DNA from: a virus
Taxonomy: Duplodnaviria > Heunggongvirae > Uroviricota > Caudoviricetes
Direction: 5' to 3' (one strand)
DNA length: 12,615 nucleotides
Virus record (IMG/VR): IMGVR_UViG_2541047681_000005
A program made the translations under genes and the position numbers. Positions 1 to 8,857 of this stretch are shown piece after piece (position 1 is the first letter of the stretch; each line of letters opens with the position of its first letter). Under the pieces are notes generated by a model. That model saw only the letters and a list, made by a program, of their open reading frames with translations, had not been told where the DNA came from and did not search any database.

Positions 1-1230
1 ATGCGCAGAGCACTTAACAAACTGAGTGATACACAGCTAAGGAAAATCAACGGCACACCCGCCCAAAAAACAGCCTTTCTTAATGACGGTGGAAACCTGA
101 GCGTCAGGCATTCAACCAGCGGCCTTTTAACCTGGTATTTCACCTACAGGGCCGGAACGGGAAGGGGAGCACGACCGGAACGGATTAAGCTGGGAAATTA
201 TCCTGATCTGAGTCTGAAAGCTGCCAGGGAAAAAGCGGCACAGTGTCGCGCTTGGCTTGCTGAGGGGAAAAATCCACGTCATGAGATGAATTACACCGTA
301 CAGAAAGCGTTAAAGCCCGTAACGGTTGGCGATGCGCTTACCTACTGGCTTGAGTCTTACGTAAAGGAAAACCGCGTGGATTATGCCGCCCTGAAAAAGC
401 GCCTTAATAATCACGTAATACAGCACATTGGTGCTATGCCGCTGGATAAATGCGAGCTACGGCACTGGCTGGCCTGTTTTGACCAGGTGGCAAAGCGAAC
501 GCCTGTTACTGCCGGATTCTTGCTACAGACGTGCAAACAGGCGCTTAAGTTCTGCCGGAGGCGGCGCTATGCAATCAGCAACGTTCTTGATGATATGAGT
601 GTGGCGGACGTTGGGAAAAAACCGGATATAAGCGAGCGTGTCTTAAGCACCAAAGAACTTGGCGAATTATTGCAGGCACTGGACAAAAAAATATTTTCCC
701 CTTACTACGTCGCACTAATCCGCCTCCTGATTGTTTTCGGATGCCGGACGGTAGAACTGAGGTTATCGGAGATCAGCGAGTGGGATTTTACCGAAATGCT
801 CTGGACCGTGCCGAAAGAACACAGCAAAACGAAGGTGGCAATATTCCGGTCCATACCGGAAGCAATACTGCCGTTCGTCACGCAGCTGGTGGAGCAGAAC
901 AGGCACACGGGCTTATTGCTGGGGGAAGTGAAACAGGAAACAAGCGTGTCGCAGTACGGCAGATTAGCGCACAGGAGGCTAAAACACCCTCACTGGTCAC
1001 TGCATGACATCCGGCGCACCTTTACAACGATGCTGAACGATTTAGGCGTGGATCCTCACGTCGTGGAGCAGCTTACAGGTCATCAGATGCCAGGGATGCA
1101 ACGAGTCTATAACCATTCCCGTTATCTGGATGCGAAACGTGACGCGCTGGATATGTGGACGGAGCGGTTAGGGATACTGGCGGGAACACATGAAAACGTA
1201 ACCACATTGCCAATAGCCAGAGAAATATAA
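1..1230 (+). CDS. int: Tyrosine site-specific integrase, P4-type
   Basis: 409-aa ORF starting at window base 1. N-terminal arm-binding-like region (LNDGGNLSV...WYFTYR...LGNYPDLSLKAARE) and C-terminal catalytic region with HDIRRT (H-x-x-R) and a terminal VYNHSRY tyrosine motif. Upstream RBS not visible because the window starts at the ATG. Confidence 0.9.
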   Translation: MRRALNKLSDTQLRKINGTPAQKTAFLNDGGNLSVRHSTSGLLTWYFTYRAGTGRGARPERIKLGNYPDLSLKAAREKAAQCRAWLAEGKNPRHEMNYTVQKALKPVTVGDALTYWLESYVKENRVDYAALKKRLNNHVIQHIGAMPLDKCELRHWLACFDQVAKRTPVTAGFLLQTCKQALKFCRRRRYAISNVLDDMSVADVGKKPDISERVLSTKELGELLQALDKKIFSPYYVALIRLLIVFGCRTVELRLSEISEWDFTEMLWTVPKEHSKTKVAIFRSIPEAILPFVTQLVEQNRHTGLLLGEVKQETSVSQYGRLAHRRLKHPHWSLHDIRRTFTTMLNDLGVDPHVVEQLTGHQMPGMQRVYNHSRYLDAKRDALDMWTERLGILAGTHENVTTLPIAREI

Positions 1231-1317: not shown

Positions 1318-1595
1318 AAAAATCAGCCATCGTAATAACCATTTGATTTTTATAGGTGTACTGTTTTTTTATACACTGGCGAATCACTCTTAAAAATATG
1401 TAAAAAAGGCGTAAAAGTAAAATTTTATGCCTTTGCATCATAATGAATTAAAAGAGTTTTTATTCTCATTCCCCCTGCTTCTGTAAAACGACCGCCGCCA
1501 GTGTTTGCCATTCCACAAACACCCTGACACAATCCGACACAACCCAACCCAATAATCCACCCAATGACTCTTTAAGAAACAACAAAGGGGGAATT

Positions 1596-1784
1596 GTGTT
1601 AAGCACAGATCGCTTTATACGTGAAAAAGAATGTCAGCAACTTACAGGCCTGAGCCGCTCATGTCGGTACCGCCTGGAAAAAGCCGGACAATTCCCATCA
1701 CGGCGTAAGCTGGGCGGTCGTTCCGTTGGCTGGTCTTTATCCGAAGTTCTGGCATGGAAGGACAGCTGCGAGGCAGTTCACTAA
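1596..1784 (+). CDS. alpA: AlpA-family transcriptional regulator (excisionase-like winged-helix protein)
   Basis: 62-aa ORF with GTG start at 1596 preceded by RBS AAAGGGGGAA. Sequence (FIREKECQQLTGLSRSCRYRLEKAGQFPSRRKLGGRSVGWSLSEVLAWK) matches the AlpA/prophage CP4-57 regulatory protein pattern. Position directly after a P4-type int is typical. Confidence 0.85.
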   Translation: MLSTDRFIREKECQQLTGLSRSCRYRLEKAGQFPSRRKLGGRSVGWSLSEVLAWKDSCEAVH

Positions 1785-1836
1785 TCAGGCTGGCGGCACA
1801 CAGCCGCCACCCATCCACTAATACAGAGATCTAACC

Positions 1837-2196
1837 ATGAATACTGGATATTCTCCCGAACAAGGGCGGGGCTTCGTTCGTCCTGAAAAACAGAATCTGC
1901 AAAATTTTGCCGAAATTATTCCGGTTATTTCCGGCCTTACTGGCGGGAGTGAAACCAATATTGTTAACGCCAGAGCGTTGCAGATGTTTGATGATAAAAA
2001 GGGAGTAAATTTAACTTACACCCCTGACGGCAATCAGAATATGAGCATTATCTCTGAGTCAGGTTTCTACAAACTAATAAAAACAAAAAGCGCCCCGTTG
2101 CCGGAGCGCCTTTGTGAACAATTAACCTACTGCGCAAAAAATGAATCTGAGCAGTGGGATTATATCAACCATGTGGAGAAGCGCCACAATTGCCGA
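1837..2196 (+). pseudogene. Possible decayed Bro-N/antirepressor-like remnant (N-terminal part of a 428-aa composite ORF)
   Basis: The first ~115 aa (DGNQNMSIISESGFYKLIKTKSAPLPERL) weakly resemble the Bro-N/KilA-N motif (ESGLYSLI...). The remainder of ORF 1837..3123 is Cys/Arg/Ser-rich and low in complexity, crosses a divergent promoter region and overlaps a better-supported minus-strand gene, so the long ORF is not one real protein. Confidence 0.25.
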
Positions 2197-2543
2197 ATAA
2201 CGGGCAAAACAAAGGCCACCCGCTACGGTGGCCCCTCGACACAAGCTACACGTTATCCCCAACGCATGAGCATTGCCAACAATGCCACATTTGCGGCTGG
2301 TGGGCAATGCAATCAGTCTGGTTCAGTTCGTTGCCATACCTGCAATGAGCGCTTTTCCCTGTACTCTTTAAGGAATTGCTCAAGGGCAAAAGCACATGGC
2401 GCGAATCTTTCTGATTCATGCTCTATCTTTCTGCGCCGTCTTTTCCGTGCCGGTGATAATGTTTTGGTCAATTCTTTATCGGTCATTGTGTTGTCCTGCA
2501 TAGCAATGCGCCGTAGTTACTCACACCACGGCGCTGGTGATGG

Positions 2544-2723
2544 TTACTCCTGCTCTTTGGCCTTGCGGCGCTGGCGGCGTTTGATTTCGCCGCGCATGGC
2601 TGCGTTTATAAACTGTCCCGTGCTTTCGCCTTCTTCTTTCACGTTCTCCATGCCTTCAATAATTTCATGGGCAATACGTGCAGTTACAGATTGTGATTTT
2701 GCATTCTTTGGACCCGTTGCCAT
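2544..2723 (-). CDS. Hypothetical small basic protein (59 aa), divergently transcribed from the left operon
   Basis: Internal ATG at 2721..2723 (complement) preceded by RBS GAGGGG with 6-nt spacing; product MATGPKNAKSQ...EIKRRQRRKAKEQE. Candidate -35/-10 (TTCAAA/TATATT) on the minus strand, overlapped by operator-like repeats. Family not recognised. Confidence 0.45.
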   Translation of the reverse strand: MATGPKNAKSQSVTARIAHEIIEGMENVKEEGESTGQFINAAMRGEIKRRQRRKAKEQE

Positions 2724-2744
2724 GTTTAACCCCTCATGTTTTTG

Positions 2745-2826
2745 GTGTAAGACAATATACACGAAAAAAAAATATTTTGAAGGGTTGACGTGTAAGACAC
2801 CATTGTTTTACATTGTGTCTTACACC
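2745..2826. promoter_or_regulatory. Divergent promoter region with three copies of an 11-bp operator-like motif GTGTAAGACAC
   Basis: Motif at 2745..2755 and 2790..2800 (direct) and 2815..2825 (inverted). Candidate + strand promoter -35 TTGACG (2785..2790) and -10 TTACAT (2808..2813), 17-bp spacer; one operator copy sits in the spacer and the inverted copy at the predicted +1. Candidate minus-strand promoter overlaps the first copy. Confidence 0.55.
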
Positions 2827-2922
2827 TTATTGATGAAAGGCACAGAAACGACGAAACCCCGCACTGTAGGAGCAGTAACGGGGCTTCTAACCACCAACGA
2901 TAGCAACAGTATCGAGGTAGCT

Positions 2923-3123
2923 ATGAGAAATCATACCACACACCCGAAAGGGCGGGACTCGCACAACCTGAATAAATACATCTGGCGTTTTATCGCCCTG
3001 AGCACGGCACAACCGCGCGTGATTACCATTGAGGCCACCAGCGAACAGGAAGCACGCCAGCAATCTCCGGCTGGCTGCGTGATGGTATTTGCTGCCCGTA
3101 TTCGTCAGGGGGTAGGCTTATGA
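2923..3123 (+). CDS. Small protein (66 aa), first gene of the left operon; possibly Icd-like, otherwise hypothetical
   Basis: ATG at 2923 with RBS GAGGT upstream; product MRNHTTHPKGRDSHNLNKYIWRFIALSTAQPRVITIEATSEQEARQQ.... Its stop overlaps the next ATG (ATGA). The Icd-like assignment is a recollection of P4-like prophage annotations and is unverified. Confidence 0.45.
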   Translation: MRNHTTHPKGRDSHNLNKYIWRFIALSTAQPRVITIEATSEQEARQQSPAGCVMVFAARIRQGVGL

Positions 3124-3350
3124 GCCAGGAAATCACACTACAACAGGCAGCAGAACGCGCCCACCAAATCGAAGTTATTTGCGCACTGGCAGAGGATTAC
3201 CCTAGCATGATGACCGACAGCGAATCAGGGGCAATCATCGGCTTACTTAAACGCCTTAGCGGTGAGGTCTGCGTATTCCTGAGCGATGAACAGGAAAGAA
3301 GAACGCTTATTTCTAACGAAAAAAAATGCGGAGGGGTACATGTGCAATAA
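3120..3350 (+). CDS. Hypothetical protein (76 aa)
   Basis: ATG at 3120 overlapping the upstream stop (ATGA), RBS AGGGGG upstream; acidic product. No family recognised. Confidence 0.5.
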   Translation: MSQEITLQQAAERAHQIEVICALAEDYPSMMTDSESGAIIGLLKRLSGEVCVFLSDEQERRTLISNEKKCGGVHVQ

Positions 3351-3570
3351 AACCACACCGGACGCAGCAGAAGAAGCAATGCAAATACTGATACGTGCGC
3401 TCGTTGATGTTACCCACATGGTGGAGATTATGGAGAGAAAATCACAGTCGGAGCACGACAAAAGAAAACTTAAAACAATAAAAATAATTGCCAAAAACTC
3501 GCTGATAAAAGTTACAGACATCCTTAATGAGGACATTAAAAGAATAAGGGAGAAAATTTGTGATGCATAA
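3340..3570 (+). CDS. Hypothetical protein (76 aa)
   Basis: ATG at 3340 preceded by RBS GGAGGGG, overlapping the previous gene by 11 nt. The longer six-frame ORF 3286..3570 probably starts at this internal ATG. No family recognised. Confidence 0.5.
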   Translation: MCNKTTPDAAEEAMQILIRALVDVTHMVEIMERKSQSEHDKRKLKTIKIIAKNSLIKVTDILNEDIKRIREKICDA

Positions 3571-3790
3571 AATCCCTTTTGAAGTATTAATCCACTCTGA
3601 AAACGCATTAATTAAAGCACGCGAAATGAATGCGTTGTTAATTAAATTAATTGAAGTGCCGGAAGGTGGCGAAGATCATTCATCATTAATGTTTGCCGCT
3701 GTTCAGACATTATTGACACCTGTTATTGATGAACTCAATAAGGCTATGGCAATTCACGAGAATAATAAAGCGCCCCACACCGGAGAATAA
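3563..3790 (+). CDS. Hypothetical protein (75 aa)
   Basis: ATG at 3563 (GTG at 3560 also possible) with RBS AAGGGAG upstream; overlaps the previous gene by 8 nt. No family recognised. Confidence 0.5.
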   Translation: MHKIPFEVLIHSENALIKAREMNALLIKLIEVPEGGEDHSSLMFAAVQTLLTPVIDELNKAMAIHENNKAPHTGE

Positions 3791-3795
3791 AAATA

Positions 3796-4095
3796 ATGAA
3801 ACTTAAATATTCTGGCTTAACTGCCAGTGGCAAAACTCGCACTAAATTCATGCGCGGTGATATTTACCGCGACCAGTACGGCGGCACGGTAATGATTAAG
3901 GGCGTGGAGGAACGGCGCGTAACCTACCGTCGTGAAGGCTACGAATATGATTGCGTGATGCCTGTTTATCAGTTCGATCGTGATTTTTCTCTGGTGCAGG
4001 CCGTACCGCGTAACGTGCCCACCAGCAGGGAGAAAGCACGCGCCAATATTCAGGAAATAAAAAAGATGCTTAACGTATTCAGGGGTAAGAAATGA
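3796..4095 (+). CDS. Hypothetical protein (99 aa)
   Basis: ATG at 3796 with RBS GGAGA 9 nt upstream; stop overlaps the primase start (ATGA). No family recognised. Confidence 0.55.
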   Translation: MKLKYSGLTASGKTRTKFMRGDIYRDQYGGTVMIKGVEERRVTYRREGYEYDCVMPVYQFDRDFSLVQAVPRNVPTSREKARANIQEIKKMLNVFRGKK

Positions 4096-5846
4096 AACTG
4101 GCACCGAACGTAAAAAAACAACCACGCGGAATAAAACACAAAGACACAGAGGTAATTATTTTCGCGGGTAGTGATGCGTGGTCACATGCAAAACAGTGGC
4201 AGGAGCAGGACGGCCCCGCATCCGGCGATAATGTGCCGCCTGTGTGGCTTGGGCCAAATCAGCTTGCCGAACTTGATGCGCTGAAAATTGTTCCGGATGG
4301 GAAAAAGCGCGTAAGGCTGTACCAGGCCGGAGAACTGGATTTAGTGGAGACCAAAAAGATTGGTCAGAAGCTGGCGGCGGCAGATATTCAGGACGCAAAT
4401 TTTTACCCTGATGGTATGCACGGTCAGAAGGTGGAGAACTGGCGCGAATATCTGGCCCGTGAGCGCCAGAATCTTTCTGATGGTCTGGTCATTGAGCTTC
4501 CGGTAAAGCAAAAGGCGCAACTTTCGCAGATGGCGGACAGTGAGCGCGCGCAGCTGCTTGCCGATCGCTTTGATGGCGTTTGCGTACATCCTGAAAGTGA
4601 AATCGTTCACGTATGGCGCGGCGGGGTATGGTGTCCGGTCAGCACAATGGAACTTAGCCGCGAAATGGTGGCGATCTATTCAGAGCACAGGGCCACTTTC
4701 AGCAAGCGCGTAATCAATAACGCCGTGGAAGCGTTAAAAGTTATTGCCGAACCAATGGGCGAGCCGTCCGGCGATTTGCTGCCGTTCGCCAATGGTGCGC
4801 TTGACCTGAAAACGGGGGAATTTTCCCCGCACACGCCGGAGAACTGGATCACCACGCACAACGGCATTGAGTACACGCCACCAGCACCAGGGGAGAACAT
4901 CCGCGATAACGCGCCAAACTTTCATAAATGGCTTAAGCACGCAGCCGGAAAAGACCCGCGCAAGATGATGCGTATATGTGCCGCGCTGTACATGATTATG
5001 GCGAACCGGTACGACTGGCAGATGTTTATTGAGGCCACCGGAGACGGCGGGAGCGGTAAAAGTACATTCACGCACATAGCCAGCCTTCTGGCAGGGAAAC
5101 AGAACACGGTAAGCGCTGAAATGACATCGCTTGATGATGCTGGTGGACGTGCGCAGGTTGTCGGGAGTCGTCTTATCGTCCTGGCTGACCAGCCGAAATA
5201 TACAGGCGAAGGAACGGGCATCAAGAAAATCACGGGCGGTGACCCCGTGGAAATTAACCCGAAATACGAAAAGCGTTTCACGGCTGTAATCAGGGCGGTG
5301 GTGCTGGCGACCAACAATAACCCGATGATATTCACCGAACGGGCCGGAGGTGTGGCACGTCGTCGCGTGATTTTCCGTTTCGACAATATCGTCAGTGAGG
5401 CCGAAAAAGACAGGGAGCTACCGGAAAAGATCGCGGCTGAAATCCCTGTCATTATCCGCCGATTGCTGGCGAACTTTACCGACCCTGAGAAGGCACGGGC
5501 TTTACTACTGGAACAGCGTGACGGTGATGAAGCACTGGCAATAAAGCAACAGACGGATCCGGTTATTGAGTTTTGCCAGTTCCTGAATTTTCTGGAGGAA
5601 GCGCGCGGCCTGATGATGGGGGGCGGTGGCGATTCAGTGAAGTACACGACCAGGAACAGCCTTTACCGCGTCTATCTGGCGTTTATGGCATACGCAGGCA
5701 GGAGCAAACCGCTAAACGTAAATGACTTTGGAAAGGCTATGAAGCCTGCCGCAAAAGTTTACGGACATGAATATATTACGCGGAAAGTTAAGGGGGTAAC
5801 GCAGACTAACGCAATAACAACAGACGAGTGCGACGCGTTTTTATAA
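4092..5846 (+). CDS. Replication primase/helicase, P4-alpha / D5-like family with P-loop NTPase domain
   Basis: 584-aa ORF with RBS AGGGG upstream; Walker A motif GDGGSGKST, followed by a hydrophobic strand (LIVLADQP) consistent with Walker B. Position after int-alpA and immediately before an iteron cluster matches satellite pri-rep genes. Confidence 0.9.
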   Translation: MKLAPNVKKQPRGIKHKDTEVIIFAGSDAWSHAKQWQEQDGPASGDNVPPVWLGPNQLAELDALKIVPDGKKRVRLYQAGELDLVETKKIGQKLAAADIQDANFYPDGMHGQKVENWREYLARERQNLSDGLVIELPVKQKAQLSQMADSERAQLLADRFDGVCVHPESEIVHVWRGGVWCPVSTMELSREMVAIYSEHRATFSKRVINNAVEALKVIAEPMGEPSGDLLPFANGALDLKTGEFSPHTPENWITTHNGIEYTPPAPGENIRDNAPNFHKWLKHAAGKDPRKMMRICAALYMIMANRYDWQMFIEATGDGGSGKSTFTHIASLLAGKQNTVSAEMTSLDDAGGRAQVVGSRLIVLADQPKYTGEGTGIKKITGGDPVEINPKYEKRFTAVIRAVVLATNNNPMIFTERAGGVARRRVIFRFDNIVSEAEKDRELPEKIAAEIPVIIRRLLANFTDPEKARALLLEQRDGDEALAIKQQTDPVIEFCQFLNFLEEARGLMMGGGGDSVKYTTRNSLYRVYLAFMAYAGRSKPLNVNDFGKAMKPAAKVYGHEYITRKVKGVTQTNAITTDECDAFL

Positions 5847-7454: not shown

Positions 7455-8509
7455 TGGCAGGCAAAGCAACGGCACTTAACACTAACCAGCTTTTCATGTA
7501 CCTGAATCGCGGGGATATTGCGGATTTTAAATTCAGCCCTCTGTTTACTACGCTGTTTTTCCCGAACGTGGCGACATTCAGCACGCAAAACATCATGCTG
7601 GATACCCTGGACATTGAAGAAGTCACCATGTCGGCGTTTTGTTCGCCTATGGTGGGTAGCCAGGTTCAGCGCGATAAAGGGTACGAAACCAGCACGATTA
7701 AACCTGGCTACATGAAGCCAAAGCACGAAATCGATCCAACGAAAACCATCATGCGCATGGCTGGAGAAGATCCGGCACAGCTTAACGACCCTACCTATCG
7801 CCGTATGCGCCTGATTACTGGCAATATGCGCCGCCAGATAAACGCCATAAAAGCGCGCGTGGAATGGCTGGCGGTAAATGCGGTAACGACCGGAAAAAAC
7901 ATCATTGAGGGCGAAGGCATAGAGCGCTATGAAATCGACTGGAAGATACCGGAAAAAAACATCATAGAGCAGGCCGACGGGAAAAAATGGTCAGAGCAGG
8001 ACAAAGAAACCCACGATCCAATCTATGATATCGAACTATACGCCGATCAGGCTGGTTGCCCCGCAAACGTCATGATTATGGGCGCTGAGGTATGGCGAAC
8101 GTTACGCAGCTTTAAAAAATTCCGTGAGCTGTACGATCTTTCCCGTGGTTCAGAATCCGCCGCCGAACTGGCCTGTAAAAACCTGGGCGAAGTGGTGAGC
8201 TTTAAAGGCTATCTTGGTGATCTGGCCCTTATCGTCTATTCCGGCAAATACACTGACAGCGATGGTACCGAAAAATATTTCCTTGAGCCTGATTTGCTGG
8301 TCCTGGGCAACACCAACAATAAAGGGCTGGTGGCCTATGGTGCGATAATGGATCAGGAAGCGGTAAGAACGGGCGCAACACAAAACATGTTTTACCCGAA
8401 AAACTGGATTGAGGACGGCGATCCGGCGATTGAGTACGTGCAGACACACAGTGCACCGCAGCCGGTACCGGCAGATATTCGCAAATTTGTTACCGTCAAA
8501 ATTGGTTAA
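7454..8509 (+). CDS. Major capsid protein, lambda gpE family
   Basis: 351-aa product aligns by eye along its length with lambda gpE (341 aa): [163 protein letters not shown] upstream. Confidence 0.9.
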   Translation: [351 protein letters not shown]

Positions 8510-8521
8510 CGGGGGGATTCT

Positions 8522-8857
8522 ATGGACACTCCATACATTGAGTTATTTGCAGGCAGTCAGCAGGTCGCCACGACGCTGGTACATTTTGCCGCTGATGCTG
8601 GCGTTATTCAGGAATTTACCCCGCTGATGCTGGCAGACAATGGCGAGTTTAAGCCGTGGGATGGTCAGGAATCTGGCAAGGCTGTTTATCTGACCTCGTA
8701 CCCTGTGGACACGTCAAAGCAGAAATCAGCACAGTGTTACAAGACGGGGATTTTCAATATTGCCGCCGTTAACTGGCCTGAGAGCGTCGACACCGATGCG
8801 AAAAAATGCGCCGCCTTTGCGGGTTCTGGCGTATCCGTTCAGCCGCTGGCCCGATAA
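8522..8857 (+). CDS. Head decoration protein, lambda gpD family
   Basis: 111-aa product (lambda gpD is 110 aa) with TPLMLADNGEFKPWDG vs TPLMLDTSSRKLVAWDG and YKTGIFNIAAVNWPESVDTDAKKCAAFAGSGVSVQ vs [44 protein letters not shown] upstream. Order is capsid then decoration, the reverse of lambda (D then E). Confidence 0.85.
   Translation: MDTPYIELFAGSQQVATTLVHFAADAGVIQEFTPLMLADNGEFKPWDGQESGKAVYLTSYPVDTSKQKSAQCYKTGIFNIAAVNWPESVDTDAKKCAAFAGSGVSVQPLAR

Follow-up and report, generated by a model that had tools for sequence, protein, structure and literature searches.

The question raised by this locus is what kind of gene, if any, is represented by a reading frame that stays open for 428 codons across a divergently transcribed regulatory cassette. 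The window, i.e. the whole stretch of 12,615 nucleotides that was analysed (viral record IMGVR_UViG_2541047681_000005), is an E. coli phage-inducible chromosomal island (PICI) of the EcCICFT073 type. As the initial annotation had reported, the ORF runs from ATG 1837 to the stop at 3123 (428 aa), and its frame is free of stop codons from 1822 onwards. Annotation of this locus is split between a gene of 66-94 aa in some genomes, with the short gene alone annotated in RefSeq complete genomes, and an 'Icd-like protein' of 360-540 aa in thousands of others. The locus is carried by ~1,760 E. coli genomes. Neither label describes the long frame, for which the correct description would be a short Icd/Kil-like gene nested in an eta-like ORF that lies over real minus-strand genes. 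We consider it rather probable that ORF 1837..3123 is an eta/kil-type nested pair of an enterobacterial satellite, kept open for translation-dependent anti-termination. The features on which this reading draws are the following.

1596..1784, plus strand: alpA, encoding an AlpA-family activator/excisionase-like regulator, directly upstream of the long ORF (Pfam Phage_AlpA, E=3e-18)
1788..1812, plus strand: stable hairpin without a U-tract, lying between the alpA stop and the long-ORF start (-17.3 kcal/mol, z=-3.45)
1837..3123, plus strand: eta-like bridging ORF of 428 codons with an Icd-like gene nested in frame at its 3' end (chance probability, recurrence in 48 of 50 clusters, layout of P4 eta)
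1852..1980, plus strand: what is left of the 5' part of an AntA-type antirepressor gene, ORF aa 6-48 (identity to loci L004 and L005)
1960..2103, plus strand: fragment of a Bro-N antirepressor gene, ORF aa 42-89 (second half of the Bro-N domain only)
2076..2113, minus strand: distal intrinsic terminator-like hairpin with T-tract for leftward transcription (terminator scan, 12 pairs plus TGTTTTTATT)
2203..2236 (stem 2211-2236), minus strand: proximal terminator-like hairpin with U-tract of the leftward operon (10-bp stem)
2248..2310, minus strand: conserved, structured 3' UTR of the leftward operon with two hairpins (amino-acid identity, fold, codon-position diversity)
2313..2486, minus strand: gene of a 57-aa basic protein, the second gene of the leftward cassette (phrog_21027, E=1e-15; RefSeq CDS)
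2544..2723, minus strand: gene of a YlcI/YnfO-family small protein, putative repressor of the rightward promoter (NF041551, 64.8 bits; phrog_949)
2745..2825, no strand assigned: operator-like repeats GTGTAAGACA at 2745-2754 and 2790-2799, with an inverted copy at 2816-2825 (repeat search)
2754..2781, minus strand: predicted sigma-70-like leftward promoter of the YlcI cassette (TTCAAA-16-TATATT, 9/12, consensus scan)
2785..2814, plus strand: predicted sigma-70-like rightward promoter within the long ORF (TTGACG-18-TACATT, 9/12, consensus scan)
2853..2887, plus strand: leader hairpin of the short transcript, 5' of the icd Shine-Dalgarno sequence (fold; ...cggggcttctaaccaccaacgatagc... conserved across loci)
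2914..2917, plus strand: Shine-Dalgarno sequence GAGG, 5 nt from ATG 2923 (conserved in E. coli, Cedecea and Edwardsiella loci)
2923..3123, plus strand: nested Icd/Kil-like gene, 66 aa (NF033153, 69.9 bits; RefSeq CDS in CFT073)
3120..3350, plus strand: next gene of the rightward operon (phrog_1478, E=3e-28; RefSeq annotation)

The two ends of the long frame are anchored by conventional genes. The upstream alpA gene is annotated by RefSeq in homologous islands and shows a pN/pS of 0.09 in its own frame; ATG 1837 lies 52 nt past its stop and is preceded by a weak SD-like GAGA. At the 3' end, the initial annotation had placed the true plus-strand coding sequence at 2923, and this start is borne out by an Icd-like gene with conserved Shine-Dalgarno sequence and ATG, annotated in the same way by RefSeq in CFT073. 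Its 66-aa product matches NF033153 (48-position model, cut-off 25 bits) with 69.9 bits as compared to 65.6 bits for the long ORF (aa 381-424), the Icd-like domain spans nt 2977-3108 and the pN/pS is 0.24. The arrangement GAGG-N5-ATG is kept across genera, even where the long frame ends 20 nt upstream. The ATG of the gene at 3120..3350 overlaps the long-ORF stop (ATGA) and the operon runs on to the primase gene at 4092..5846. Apart from a below-threshold Bro-N match, the Icd-like domain is the only one found in the long ORF.

Openness of this frame by chance is hard to obtain. Upstream of the icd ATG no stop codon occurs in 362 codons of the long-ORF frame, while the other two plus-strand frames contain 21 and 23. 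When the non-overlapped parts were shuffled with a Markov model and the minus-strand genes were resampled synonymously, the probability of an open frame was ~1.5e-6. The minus-strand genes span just 354 of the 1086 nt upstream of icd, and the two non-overlapped segments of 158 and 66 codons have probabilities of being open of 5e-4 and 0.015, respectively. The encoded peptide is unusual: aa 116-362 are rich in Ser, Arg, Thr and Ala with 13 Cys, an odd composition that does not amount to the low complexity named in the initial annotation if the term is taken strictly. AlphaFold2 modelling gave a pLDDT below 50 at every residue (mean 28), which is weak evidence because the underlying alignment of 36 sequences is shallow. 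The C/G ratio of the plus-strand RNA, used as a proxy for rut sites, is mildly above 1, with no striking rut-like signature.

The N-terminal part carries the traces of a decayed gene with weak Bro-N/antirepressor resemblance that had been noticed earlier, and in fact of two such genes. Residues 6-48 are 74% identical to an ant fragment of L004 and 67% identical to aa 23-52 of a 280-aa AntA protein of L005, whose AntA domain proper (aa 47-132) is missing from the window ORF. Residues 42-89 share 71% identity with aa 57-107 of an intact 192-aa Bro-N protein of L029. The Pfam Bro-N profile (PF02498) matches aa 50-91 below its cut-off (E=0.009, 17.1 bits against 25.6) and covers profile positions 35-85 of 96 only, hence the complete domain is absent, and PHROG antirepressor families match aa 44-90 with E ~1e-5. 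As judged from these alignments, the N-terminal ~85 aa are a chimera of two antirepressor gene remnants, neither with a complete domain.

The middle of the ORF mirrors, on the opposite strand, two minus-strand genes with their terminators as well as a divergent promoter/operator region. The initial annotation had pointed to one overlapping minus-strand gene; there are two, at 2544..2723 (NF041551) and 2313..2486 (phrog_21027), and the divergent promoter/operator region that it proposed is supported by promoter-like sites on both strands and three GTGTAAGACA operator-like repeats. The protein encoded at 2544..2723 exceeds the cut-off of the YlcI/YnfO family model (NF041551 / DUF3950; 64.8 bits against 30), and on the minus strand its gene evolves as coding sequence, with diversity in the order pos2<pos1<pos3 and a pN/pS of 0.38. 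From its position we infer that it represses the rightward promoter, whose predicted site at 2785..2814 is overlapped by the operator repeats, with the inverted pair 2790-2803 / 2812-2825 flanking the -10 element on both sides. Nothing on the function of YlcI/YnfO proteins was found in the literature searched. In a comparison with ribbon-helix-helix repressors (Arc/CopG type), the top match of this protein in a PDB profile search was Arc, with a weak E of 0.55, and the L082-type cassette protein matches Pfam Arc below threshold (E=0.0057); the AlphaFold2 model consists of two helices with a pLDDT of 83, and Foldseek returned no significant match for it. For the 57-aa gene, which is present in some relatives only, the minus-strand frame has the lowest pN/pS (0.37). 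The distal terminator folds to -20.5 kcal/mol (z=-4.99) on the minus strand as compared to -13.7 kcal/mol on the plus strand, and is translated by the ORF as ...KSAPLPERL...; the proximal stem was obtained from a minus-strand fold of 2190-2315.

Selection on the peptide was examined in the same segments. In the ORF frame pN/pS is 0.84 (2086-2312) and 1.12 (2724-2922), equal to out-of-frame controls, and codon-position diversity in the non-overlapped segments is flat. In the overlapped parts, constraint is found in the minus-strand frames and not in the ORF frame. The region 2248..2310 is the most conserved part of the entire ORF (aa identity of 0.9 over 120 homologues), and there too codon-position diversity is flat. 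The bridging frame is without amino-acid-level selection; that purifying selection goes undetected does not prove that the peptide is functionless. We propose that the selected trait would be translatability rather than the peptide sequence.

A survey of related loci was based on 175 loci fetched with only the 66-aa Icd part as bait, among which 148 with at least 900 nt upstream formed 50 upstream sequence clusters. In 48 of the 50 clusters, a single plus-strand frame reaches icd after at least 133 codons without a stop (median 270), as compared to 99-117 codons in open-frame controls on identical DNA. These clusters are mosaics with common modules and hence not 50 independent trials, and their number falls to 14-25 groups by single linkage at looser thresholds. 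Mosaicism also left only nine collinear unique sequences for a full-region alignment, and analyses were therefore done segment by segment. In eight other genera, whose upstream sequence is unalignable, the frame is open for 176-293 codons, each with P between 5e-3 and 1e-4 at 0.030 stops per codon, a conservative rate measured for wobble-sharing antisense frames. Apparent exceptions carry a frame of 300-400 codons in another phase, ending 20 nt before or overlapping the icd ATG; the long frame is unfused to icd in ~15% of loci. L067 has three in-frame stops in the bridge, and the L042 cluster has an interrupted bridge and no antirepressor gene.

The position of the frame is conserved as well. 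In 22 of the 37 clusters having alpA, it opens -155 to +37 nt from the alpA stop. The gap was inspected in 10 of the remaining 15: in nine of these an antirepressor gene of full length occupies it, of the Bro-N or AntA type (in L004 it consists of two ORFs), and in eight of the 10 bridge start and antirepressor stop overlap. Indels of the intergenic part net to multiples of three (0, -9, 0, -3). The open frame is thus conserved, and so is its placement, with alpA or an intact antirepressor gene at one end and icd at the other. In all 46 minus-strand small-regulator genes the third codon positions coincide with those of the bridge, a phase pattern that may stem from two or three independent cassette lineages only. 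A synonymous-shuffle test on 32 such genes gave a probability of being open of ~0.4 per gene, which is mildly informative and circular, because the genes were chosen inside bridges. A measure of how far the first start codon lies from the closest stop-to-stop stretch before it was dropped as evidence, being a noisy proxy in which that stretch is often no gene. The notion of a non-coding read-through by chance, as held in the initial annotation, is contradicted by the chance probability of ~1.5e-6, by numerous full-length homologues of 60-99% identity, by openness in 48/50 clusters and at least eight other genera, by the compensated indels and by the resemblance to the eta/kil layout of P4. The refuting case named in the initial annotation, a full-length homologue with conserved domains throughout, is half realised: the homologues span the full length, but conserved domains are not found all along them.

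The closest precedent is the phage-plasmid P4. Its eta ORF (8168..8812) begins with an ATG that shares bases with the stop codon of vis/ORF88, the alpA homologue, and its product contains Phage_ASH (PF10554, 82.2 bits) and, at the C-terminus (kil, aa 161-208), NF033153 (73.1 bits). According to PMC10111431, which summarises Forti et al. 1999 (J Bacteriol 181:5225), full-length Eta is translated only when transcription starts at the late promoter upstream, and its translation reportedly keeps this transcript from ending prematurely ('Eta translation prevents termination'). In both elements a long ORF lies just downstream of an alpA homologue on the same strand, its last ~65 codons form a separately expressed small gene of the Icd-like family (toxic in P4), a promoter for the short gene lies inside the long ORF (predicted by consensus scan in the window), an immunity determinant (putative in the window) is contained within it, and the replication (primase) operon follows downstream. 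The predicted rightward promoter at 2785..2814 would be the analogue of P4 PLE, with the short icd-like gene and the replication operon transcribed from it. The two differ in length, with 197-214 codons for P4 eta and 428 for the window ORF, and at the start, where 52 nt separate the window ORF from the alpA stop, hence no overlap with alpA as in P4. They also differ in the determinant carried: in P4 eta the CI RNA (Rfam C4) and a seqA/isrK-like site lie on the strand of eta itself, whereas the window has an antisense YlcI/YnfO-family protein cassette that is divergently transcribed and, unlike in P4, has its own promoter, operator repeats and two terminators. Rfam matches for C4 and isrK were obtained in P4 and in the E. 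albertii locus L008, and a search of all Rfam families at E<=1 returned no match in the window, hence no P4-type CI/C4 or isrK RNA; the leader hairpin 2853-2887 was accordingly rejected as a recognisable relative of C4. Phage_ASH is absent from the window ORF in Pfam searches, BLAST against P4 Eta is non-significant (E=0.51), and tblastn against 50,697 phage records gave four weak partial matches only, P4 not among them; the link with P4 therefore rests on the common NF033153 domain and the layout. The window ORF has the architecture of the eta/kil nested gene pair, with an antisense protein cassette in the place of the CI-RNA cassette of P4. The eta/kil architecture is already known from P4 and the antisense protein cassette in place of the CI RNA is new here; no description of such a cassette within eta-like ORFs was found in the literature searched.

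'Bro zone' genes are found in Gram-negative PICIs (PMC10111431), and 'ORF3' in EcCICFT073 (PMC6092414); the window ORF shares with both the type of element and the position, which is flanked by the integration zone (int, alpA) on one side and the replication zone on the other. The EcCICFT073 locus, with ~94% identity over window 1500-3400 and the same open frame, is the closest characterised relative. Bro zone and window share segment-swapping mosaics and N-terminal AntA, Bro-N or Phage_ASH pieces. In PMC10111431 these segments are treated as protein domains of Bro-network proteins, and immunity RNAs are mentioned but an antisense protein cassette is not; in contrast, the middle segments of the window ORF are mirror images of minus-strand genes and regulatory DNA, without peptide-level selection. 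In EcCICFT073, AlpA activates PalpA and an 'ORF3'-fused reporter, and induction requires alpA (PMC6092414).

Two further systems offer partial parallels with the window. A small Icd-family gene stands first in an operon behind an upstream immunity element, with antirepressor-type genes nearby, both here and in the immI region of phage P1. In P1, translation of the operon begins with icd, which encodes a cell-division inhibitor of the Icd family, control is exerted by the immunity element just upstream, and antirepressor-type genes share the module in the order c4-icd-ant. The P1 controller is an RNA, and icd is upstream of and coupled to ant, which sets it apart from the window; we know of no long ORF upstream of icd in P1. 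In the excludons of Listeria, a long antisense transcript silences the divergent neighbour and doubles as the mRNA of downstream genes; the window is proposed to resemble them in having one transcript that runs antisense to a divergent regulatory operon and also serves as message for genes with the opposite function. Excludons carry their antisense part as an untranslated 5' UTR, whereas the one in the window is a maintained open reading frame. In E. coli, Rho efficiently ends the transcription of antisense RNA that is not translated, and this is a plausible reason why the antisense part is kept open.

In the quiescent island, the divergent module would act like an immunity switch, in which the YlcI/YnfO-family protein from the minus strand presumably binds the GTGTAAGACA repeats and limits the internal rightward promoter, thereby holding down the 66-aa Icd/Kil-like gene (ATG 2923) and the replication operon. 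Upon induction, AlpA would turn on its own promoter, as demonstrated for EcCICFT073, and the alpA transcript would extend rightward, antisense across the entire cassette. Selection would hold one frame stop-free from just past alpA to icd, so that ribosomes can trail RNA polymerase over ~1.1 kb and translation would block termination by Rho and by the hairpins of both leftward terminators. The transcript could then reach icd, the small genes and the primase gene irrespective of the repressor-controlled promoter. In such a scheme the N-terminus is a scrap of antirepressor genes and the middle a wobble-phase mirror of minus-strand genes and regulatory DNA. Read-through from PalpA, translation of the long ORF and anti-termination by such translation are all inferred. 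We see even chances for a more specific version, a 'ribosome bridge', in which a kilobase ORF selected for translatability only runs antisense, in a wobble-sharing phase, over a complete divergent regulator operon, such that one AlpA-driven transcript overrides or silences the immunity cassette and escapes Rho.

Among other explanations, a genuine multi-domain 'Bro-network' protein, with the full 428 aa made and functional and its variable segments being swapped domains (as in PMC10111431), is unlikely. Many full-length homologues exist, some with a complete-enough Bro-N (P0087, 52.9 bits) or Phage_ASH (P0070, 54.4 bits), NCBI calls the long products Icd-like proteins and P4 Eta is a recognised gene product; however, the middle 250 aa mirror a promoter/operator, two terminators and two genes that are themselves under constraint, pN/pS equals that of control frames where nothing else is encoded, the fusion to icd is missing in ~15% of loci, and the N-terminal modules are truncated in the window, with a pLDDT below 50 throughout (from the shallow alignment). 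Quite improbable as the main selected role is a translated, excludon-like antisense silencer, which would shut off the leftward cassette via convergent transcription, antisense RNA pairing or ribosome/RNA polymerase traffic, with the replication genes then fired from the derepressed internal promoter and read-through into them secondary. In its favour, the ORF spans the leftward operon exactly, from terminators to promoter, translation would shield such antisense RNA from Rho in E. coli, and induction requires AlpA. It leaves unexplained, however, why the open frame extends past the leftward promoter and ends only 20 nt short of icd, over its ATG or inside it, and the P4 precedent is one of read-through. 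Antisense silencing is compatible with the bridge explanation, and both could act together.

An accidental composite, in which a decayed antirepressor gene runs stop-free by chance into the icd frame and the long ORF is meaningless, is very improbable. The N-terminus is truly a chimeric gene remnant, segments 2086-2312 and 2724-2922 lack amino-acid-level selection, no confident fold was obtained and RefSeq complete genomes carry only the short gene annotation; yet this reading has a probability of ~1.5e-6 from the window alone and is contradicted by the comparative data, in which the open frame recurs in 48/50 clusters and in eight other genera with unrelated upstream sequence, begins at alpA or where an antirepressor gene stops and has its indels compensated. 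That the frame is open merely as a shadow of real minus-strand genes in a stop-poor antisense phase is extremely improbable. Third positions do coincide with those of the minus-strand genes, the stop rate of this antisense phase is lower (0.030 per codon), and, given the protein sequence, the two window genes leave the frame open with a probability of 0.36-0.80, with an average of ~0.4 over 32 regulator genes, but the minus-strand genes of the window account for no more than 354 of the 1086 nt before icd, the uncovered segments have the low probabilities given above (5e-4 and 0.015), and antisense frames of downstream genes in the same loci have a median of only 116 codons, which makes the effect quantitatively insufficient.

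If kept open for translation-dependent anti-termination, the eta/kil-type pair would be a clean example from nature of an open frame that is selected while its peptide is not, and one of obligate antisense overlap in a wobble-sharing phase, with relevance for the interpretation of overlapping ORFs and for the ways in which mobile elements deal with Rho when it silences antisense or foreign transcription. The known action of AlpA in EcCICFT073 is limited to the activation of its own promoter and of 'ORF3', and translated read-through from PalpA would provide a testable route to replication. If the bridge reading is true, the locus is a translated excludon, and many 'domain-swapping Bro segments' and 'Icd-like proteins' of 360-540 aa in databases would be mirrored regulatory cassettes and not domains. 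At the proximal terminator (2203..2236) the plus strand reads ...GKTKA..., and a motif M-x-x-KTKAA is found at the start of the bridge in four other genera.

Positions 1837..3123 are best interpreted as an eta-like bridging ORF with a nested kil/icd gene, whose open frame is conserved in presence and placement, which lacks peptide-level constraint, and which has its domain and layout in common with P4. The window represents a PICI-type phage satellite of E. coli, which homologous genomes carry integrated beside roxA, and window positions 1500-3400 are ~94% identical to the EcCICFT073 locus. The long ORF extends from an ATG at 1837, preceded by a weak Shine-Dalgarno sequence, to a stop at 3123, with no stop codon from 1822 onward, and lies among the following features.

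1..1230, integrase gene
1596..1784, alpA
1837..3123, + strand, long ORF of 428 aa
2076-2113, terminator-like hairpin in leftward orientation (consensus match)
2203-2236, terminator-like hairpin in leftward orientation, stem 2211-2236 (consensus match)
2313..2486, - strand, gene for a hypothetical 57-aa protein (RefSeq), inside the long ORF
2544..2723, - strand, YlcI/YnfO-family protein gene (RefSeq), inside the long ORF
2923..3123, + strand, nested short Icd-like gene (icd), 66 aa
between the long ORF and primase, + strand, small genes followed by a DUF4222 gene
4092..5846, primase gene

In three complete genomes 1785-2312 is without RefSeq annotation, and the only RefSeq call on the + strand in this region is a short Icd-like CDS equivalent to 2923..3123, with a 94-aa version in one genome. 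The same frame is labelled inconsistently by NCBI, as a 66-94-aa Icd-like protein in complete RefSeq genomes versus 360-540-aa proteins elsewhere, named 'Icd-like', 'ash family' or 'Bro-N domain-containing'. Upstream, the int-alpA spacer (1231-1595) is AT-rich with a GC content of 0.35-0.38, and its sole + strand promoter-like site upstream of alpA, at 1505-1533 with an extended -10 TG (consensus match), is presumably the AlpA-activated PalpA. In EcCICFT073, AlpA is required for induction and activates its own promoter and an 'ORF3' reporter fusion (PMC6092414). The Rfam int-alpA RNA (RF02996) precedes alpA in two other genera (L004 1117-1185 and L005 618-686, both related loci fetched for comparison), and an Rfam search of the window did not find this RNA even at E<=1. 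A strong GC hairpin without a U-tract directly follows the alpA stop, ahead of the long-ORF ATG (1788-1812; -17.3 kcal/mol, z=-3.45). At the other end, the long ORF and icd finish in a stop codon that shares bases with the next gene's ATG (ATGA at 3120-3123), and the small genes after 3123 are closely packed as far as primase, an arrangement consistent with translational coupling along the entire rightward operon.

The initial annotation explained the long ORF as a decayed gene followed by accidental non-coding read-through, an explanation that fails on the openness of the frame. Ahead of the icd ATG the frame runs for 362 codons without a stop, against 21 and 23 stops in the other two + frames, and under a model that applies Markov shuffling to the non-overlapped segments and resamples both minus-strand genes synonymously, such openness arises by chance with P about 1.5e-6. 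A protein search returned 2,045 matches, of which more than 100 are full-length (361-540 aa, 60-99% identity) and mostly carry the NCBI name 'Icd-like protein'; in CFT073 and two other genomes the long frame is open too, although RefSeq annotates only the short gene there. Since protein databases contain only open ORFs and such homologues are possibly biased, loci were fetched with the 66-aa Icd part as sole bait, 12 of them from species-representative genomes, 80 from IMG/VR and 80 from metagenomes. The 148 loci with at least 900 nt upstream of icd form 50 upstream-sequence clusters, which are mosaics with common modules and merge to 14-25 groups under looser thresholds. In 48 of the 50, a single + frame runs into icd without a stop over 133 codons or more (median 270, maximum 541), whereas the longest open stretches in the controls (remaining + frames, minus strand, antisense of downstream genes) have medians of 99-117. 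Eight loci from other genera (E. ruysiae, Cedecea, Rahnella, Enterobacter, Superficieibacter, Rosenbergiella, Intestinirhabdus and Tenebrionibacter) keep 176-293 codons of the frame open though their upstream sequence is unalignable, each with a probability of 5e-3 to 1e-4 at a conservative rate of 0.030 stops per codon, measured in wobble-sharing antisense frames. The apparent exceptions have a 300-400-codon frame in another phase, which ends 20 nt before the icd ATG or overlaps it; hence the conserved feature is an open frame reaching icd, not a fusion. One locus, L067, has three in-frame stops.

In 22 of the 37 clusters with a recognisable alpA the frame opens -155 to +37 nt from the alpA stop and spans at least 95% of the alpA-icd interval (451-1262 nt). 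The gap was inspected in 10 of the other 15, and nine contain an antirepressor gene of 190-280 aa, full-length and of Bro-N or AntA type, split into two ORFs in L004. In eight of these 10 the upstream gene's stop shares bases with the bridge start (ATGA in L014, GTGA in L011). ORFs thus tile the + strand from alpA to primase. The remaining gap, in L042, is without an antirepressor gene and has an interrupted bridge; in this one cluster the frame is broken by a 176-aa membrane-protein-like gene (2127-2657, - strand), which may be inserted cargo or a defence gene.

Codon-position diversity and pN/pS, computed per segment alignment, separate the frame from its peptide. Across 2086-2312 (22 unique sequences, 81-98% identical) diversity is flat at 0.123/0.125/0.107 and pN/pS is 0.84 in the ORF frame and 0.71-0.87 in the other five; in the intergenic segment 2724-2922 the ORF frame gives 1.12. 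Antisense to the 57-aa gene and the YlcI/YnfO gene, minus-strand diversity follows pos2<pos1<pos3 and pN/pS is lowest in the minus frame (0.37 and 0.38, against 0.58 and 0.46 in the + ORF frame). In their own frames icd gives 0.24 and alpA 0.09. AlphaFold2 predicts the long ORF with a mean pLDDT of 28 and no residue reaching 50, which is weak evidence as the alignment was shallow (36 sequences). Intergenic indels in four variants are net 0, -9, 0 and -3, and minus-strand regulator genes of several types are, in 46 of 46 cases, in the phase that brings the third codon positions of the two strands together. The peptide therefore shows no sign of selection, whereas the frame does, in its indels and in the phase of the minus-strand genes. 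In L024/L025, a 1-nt deletion in the YlcI-like gene, equivalent to window 2641, disrupts that gene and the long + frame alike, which suggests an island copy in decay.

The initial annotation was correct on the anatomy of 1837-3123, namely an antirepressor-like N-terminus, an overlapped minus-strand gene and a divergent promoter/operator region, and its advice not to annotate a 428-aa protein of conserved function and to place the real start at 2923 holds. The Bro-N resemblance it described is present below threshold (17.1 bits vs 25.6, second half of the domain only), and PHROG antirepressor families match the N-terminus at E about 1e-5. Compared with intact genes in related loci, this N-terminus proves chimeric, with pieces of two different antirepressor genes: aa 6-48 resemble AntA-type proteins over their first ~45 residues, ahead of the AntA domain proper, and aa 42-89 resemble a 192-aa Bro-N protein over its aa 57-107, with a terminator following directly. 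The sole above-threshold domain is the Icd-like NF033153 (aa 381-424), and icd has a conserved GAGG-N5-ATG start. The minus-strand YlcI/YnfO gene matches its NCBIfam model at 64.8 bits; between this gene and icd are located divergent sigma-70-like sites (consensus matches) and three copies of GTGTAAGACA, an inverted pair of which flanks the -10 of the rightward promoter. The best-conserved stretch of the long ORF (aa identity about 0.9, 120 homologues) is the leftward operon's 3' UTR (2229-2312, - strand). A GCGGCTGGTGGGCAA motif in it, 'AAGGQ' in the + frame, is also found in loci of Rahnella, Superficieibacter, Rosenbergiella and Intestinirhabdus. The UTR forms two hairpins in addition to the terminator hairpin 2211-2236 (z=-2.05), and it could act as a site on the DNA or give rise to a small RNA.

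Phage-plasmid P4 has the same layout in its nested eta/kil genes. The P4 ORF 8168..8812 (- strand), whose ATG overlaps the stop of ORF88/vis, an alpA homologue, contains Phage_ASH (aa 37-161) and, as kil, the NF033153 domain (aa 161-208) common to the window ORF. However, it harbours on its own strand an isrK-like element and the CI RNA (Rfam C4), whereas the window has in place of this RNA immunity cassette a divergent protein cassette, read antisense by the ORF. As PMC10111431 summarizes Forti et al. 1999, P4 Kil is a truncated Eta, full-length Eta is made only from the upstream late promoter, coupled to the alpA homologue, and 'Eta translation prevents termination'. That paper also puts PICI 'Bro zone' genes in the eta/kil class and regards their mosaic segments as protein domains, with no mention of an antisense protein cassette for them. 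On this reading, the internal operator-flanked promoter would serve only the short icd gene and the replication operon, under control of the YlcI-like protein, a putative repressor. In a search for a ribbon-helix-helix fold, the best PDB profile match of this protein was Arc at E=0.55, the L082-type cassette protein matched Pfam Arc below threshold (E=0.0057), and an AlphaFold2 model (pLDDT 83) had two helices and no significant Foldseek match. A long transcript from PalpA would read through the cassette in antisense, and translation of the long ORF on it would shield this transcript from Rho and the terminator hairpins; unlike P4 eta, the window ORF has to accommodate a divergent protein cassette in antisense. 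In E. albertii L008, P4-type isrK-like and C4 (CI) RNAs lie upstream of icd (3735-3923) and the YlcI-type protein cassette is absent; RNA and protein cassettes are therefore alternatives in one slot of the same framework.
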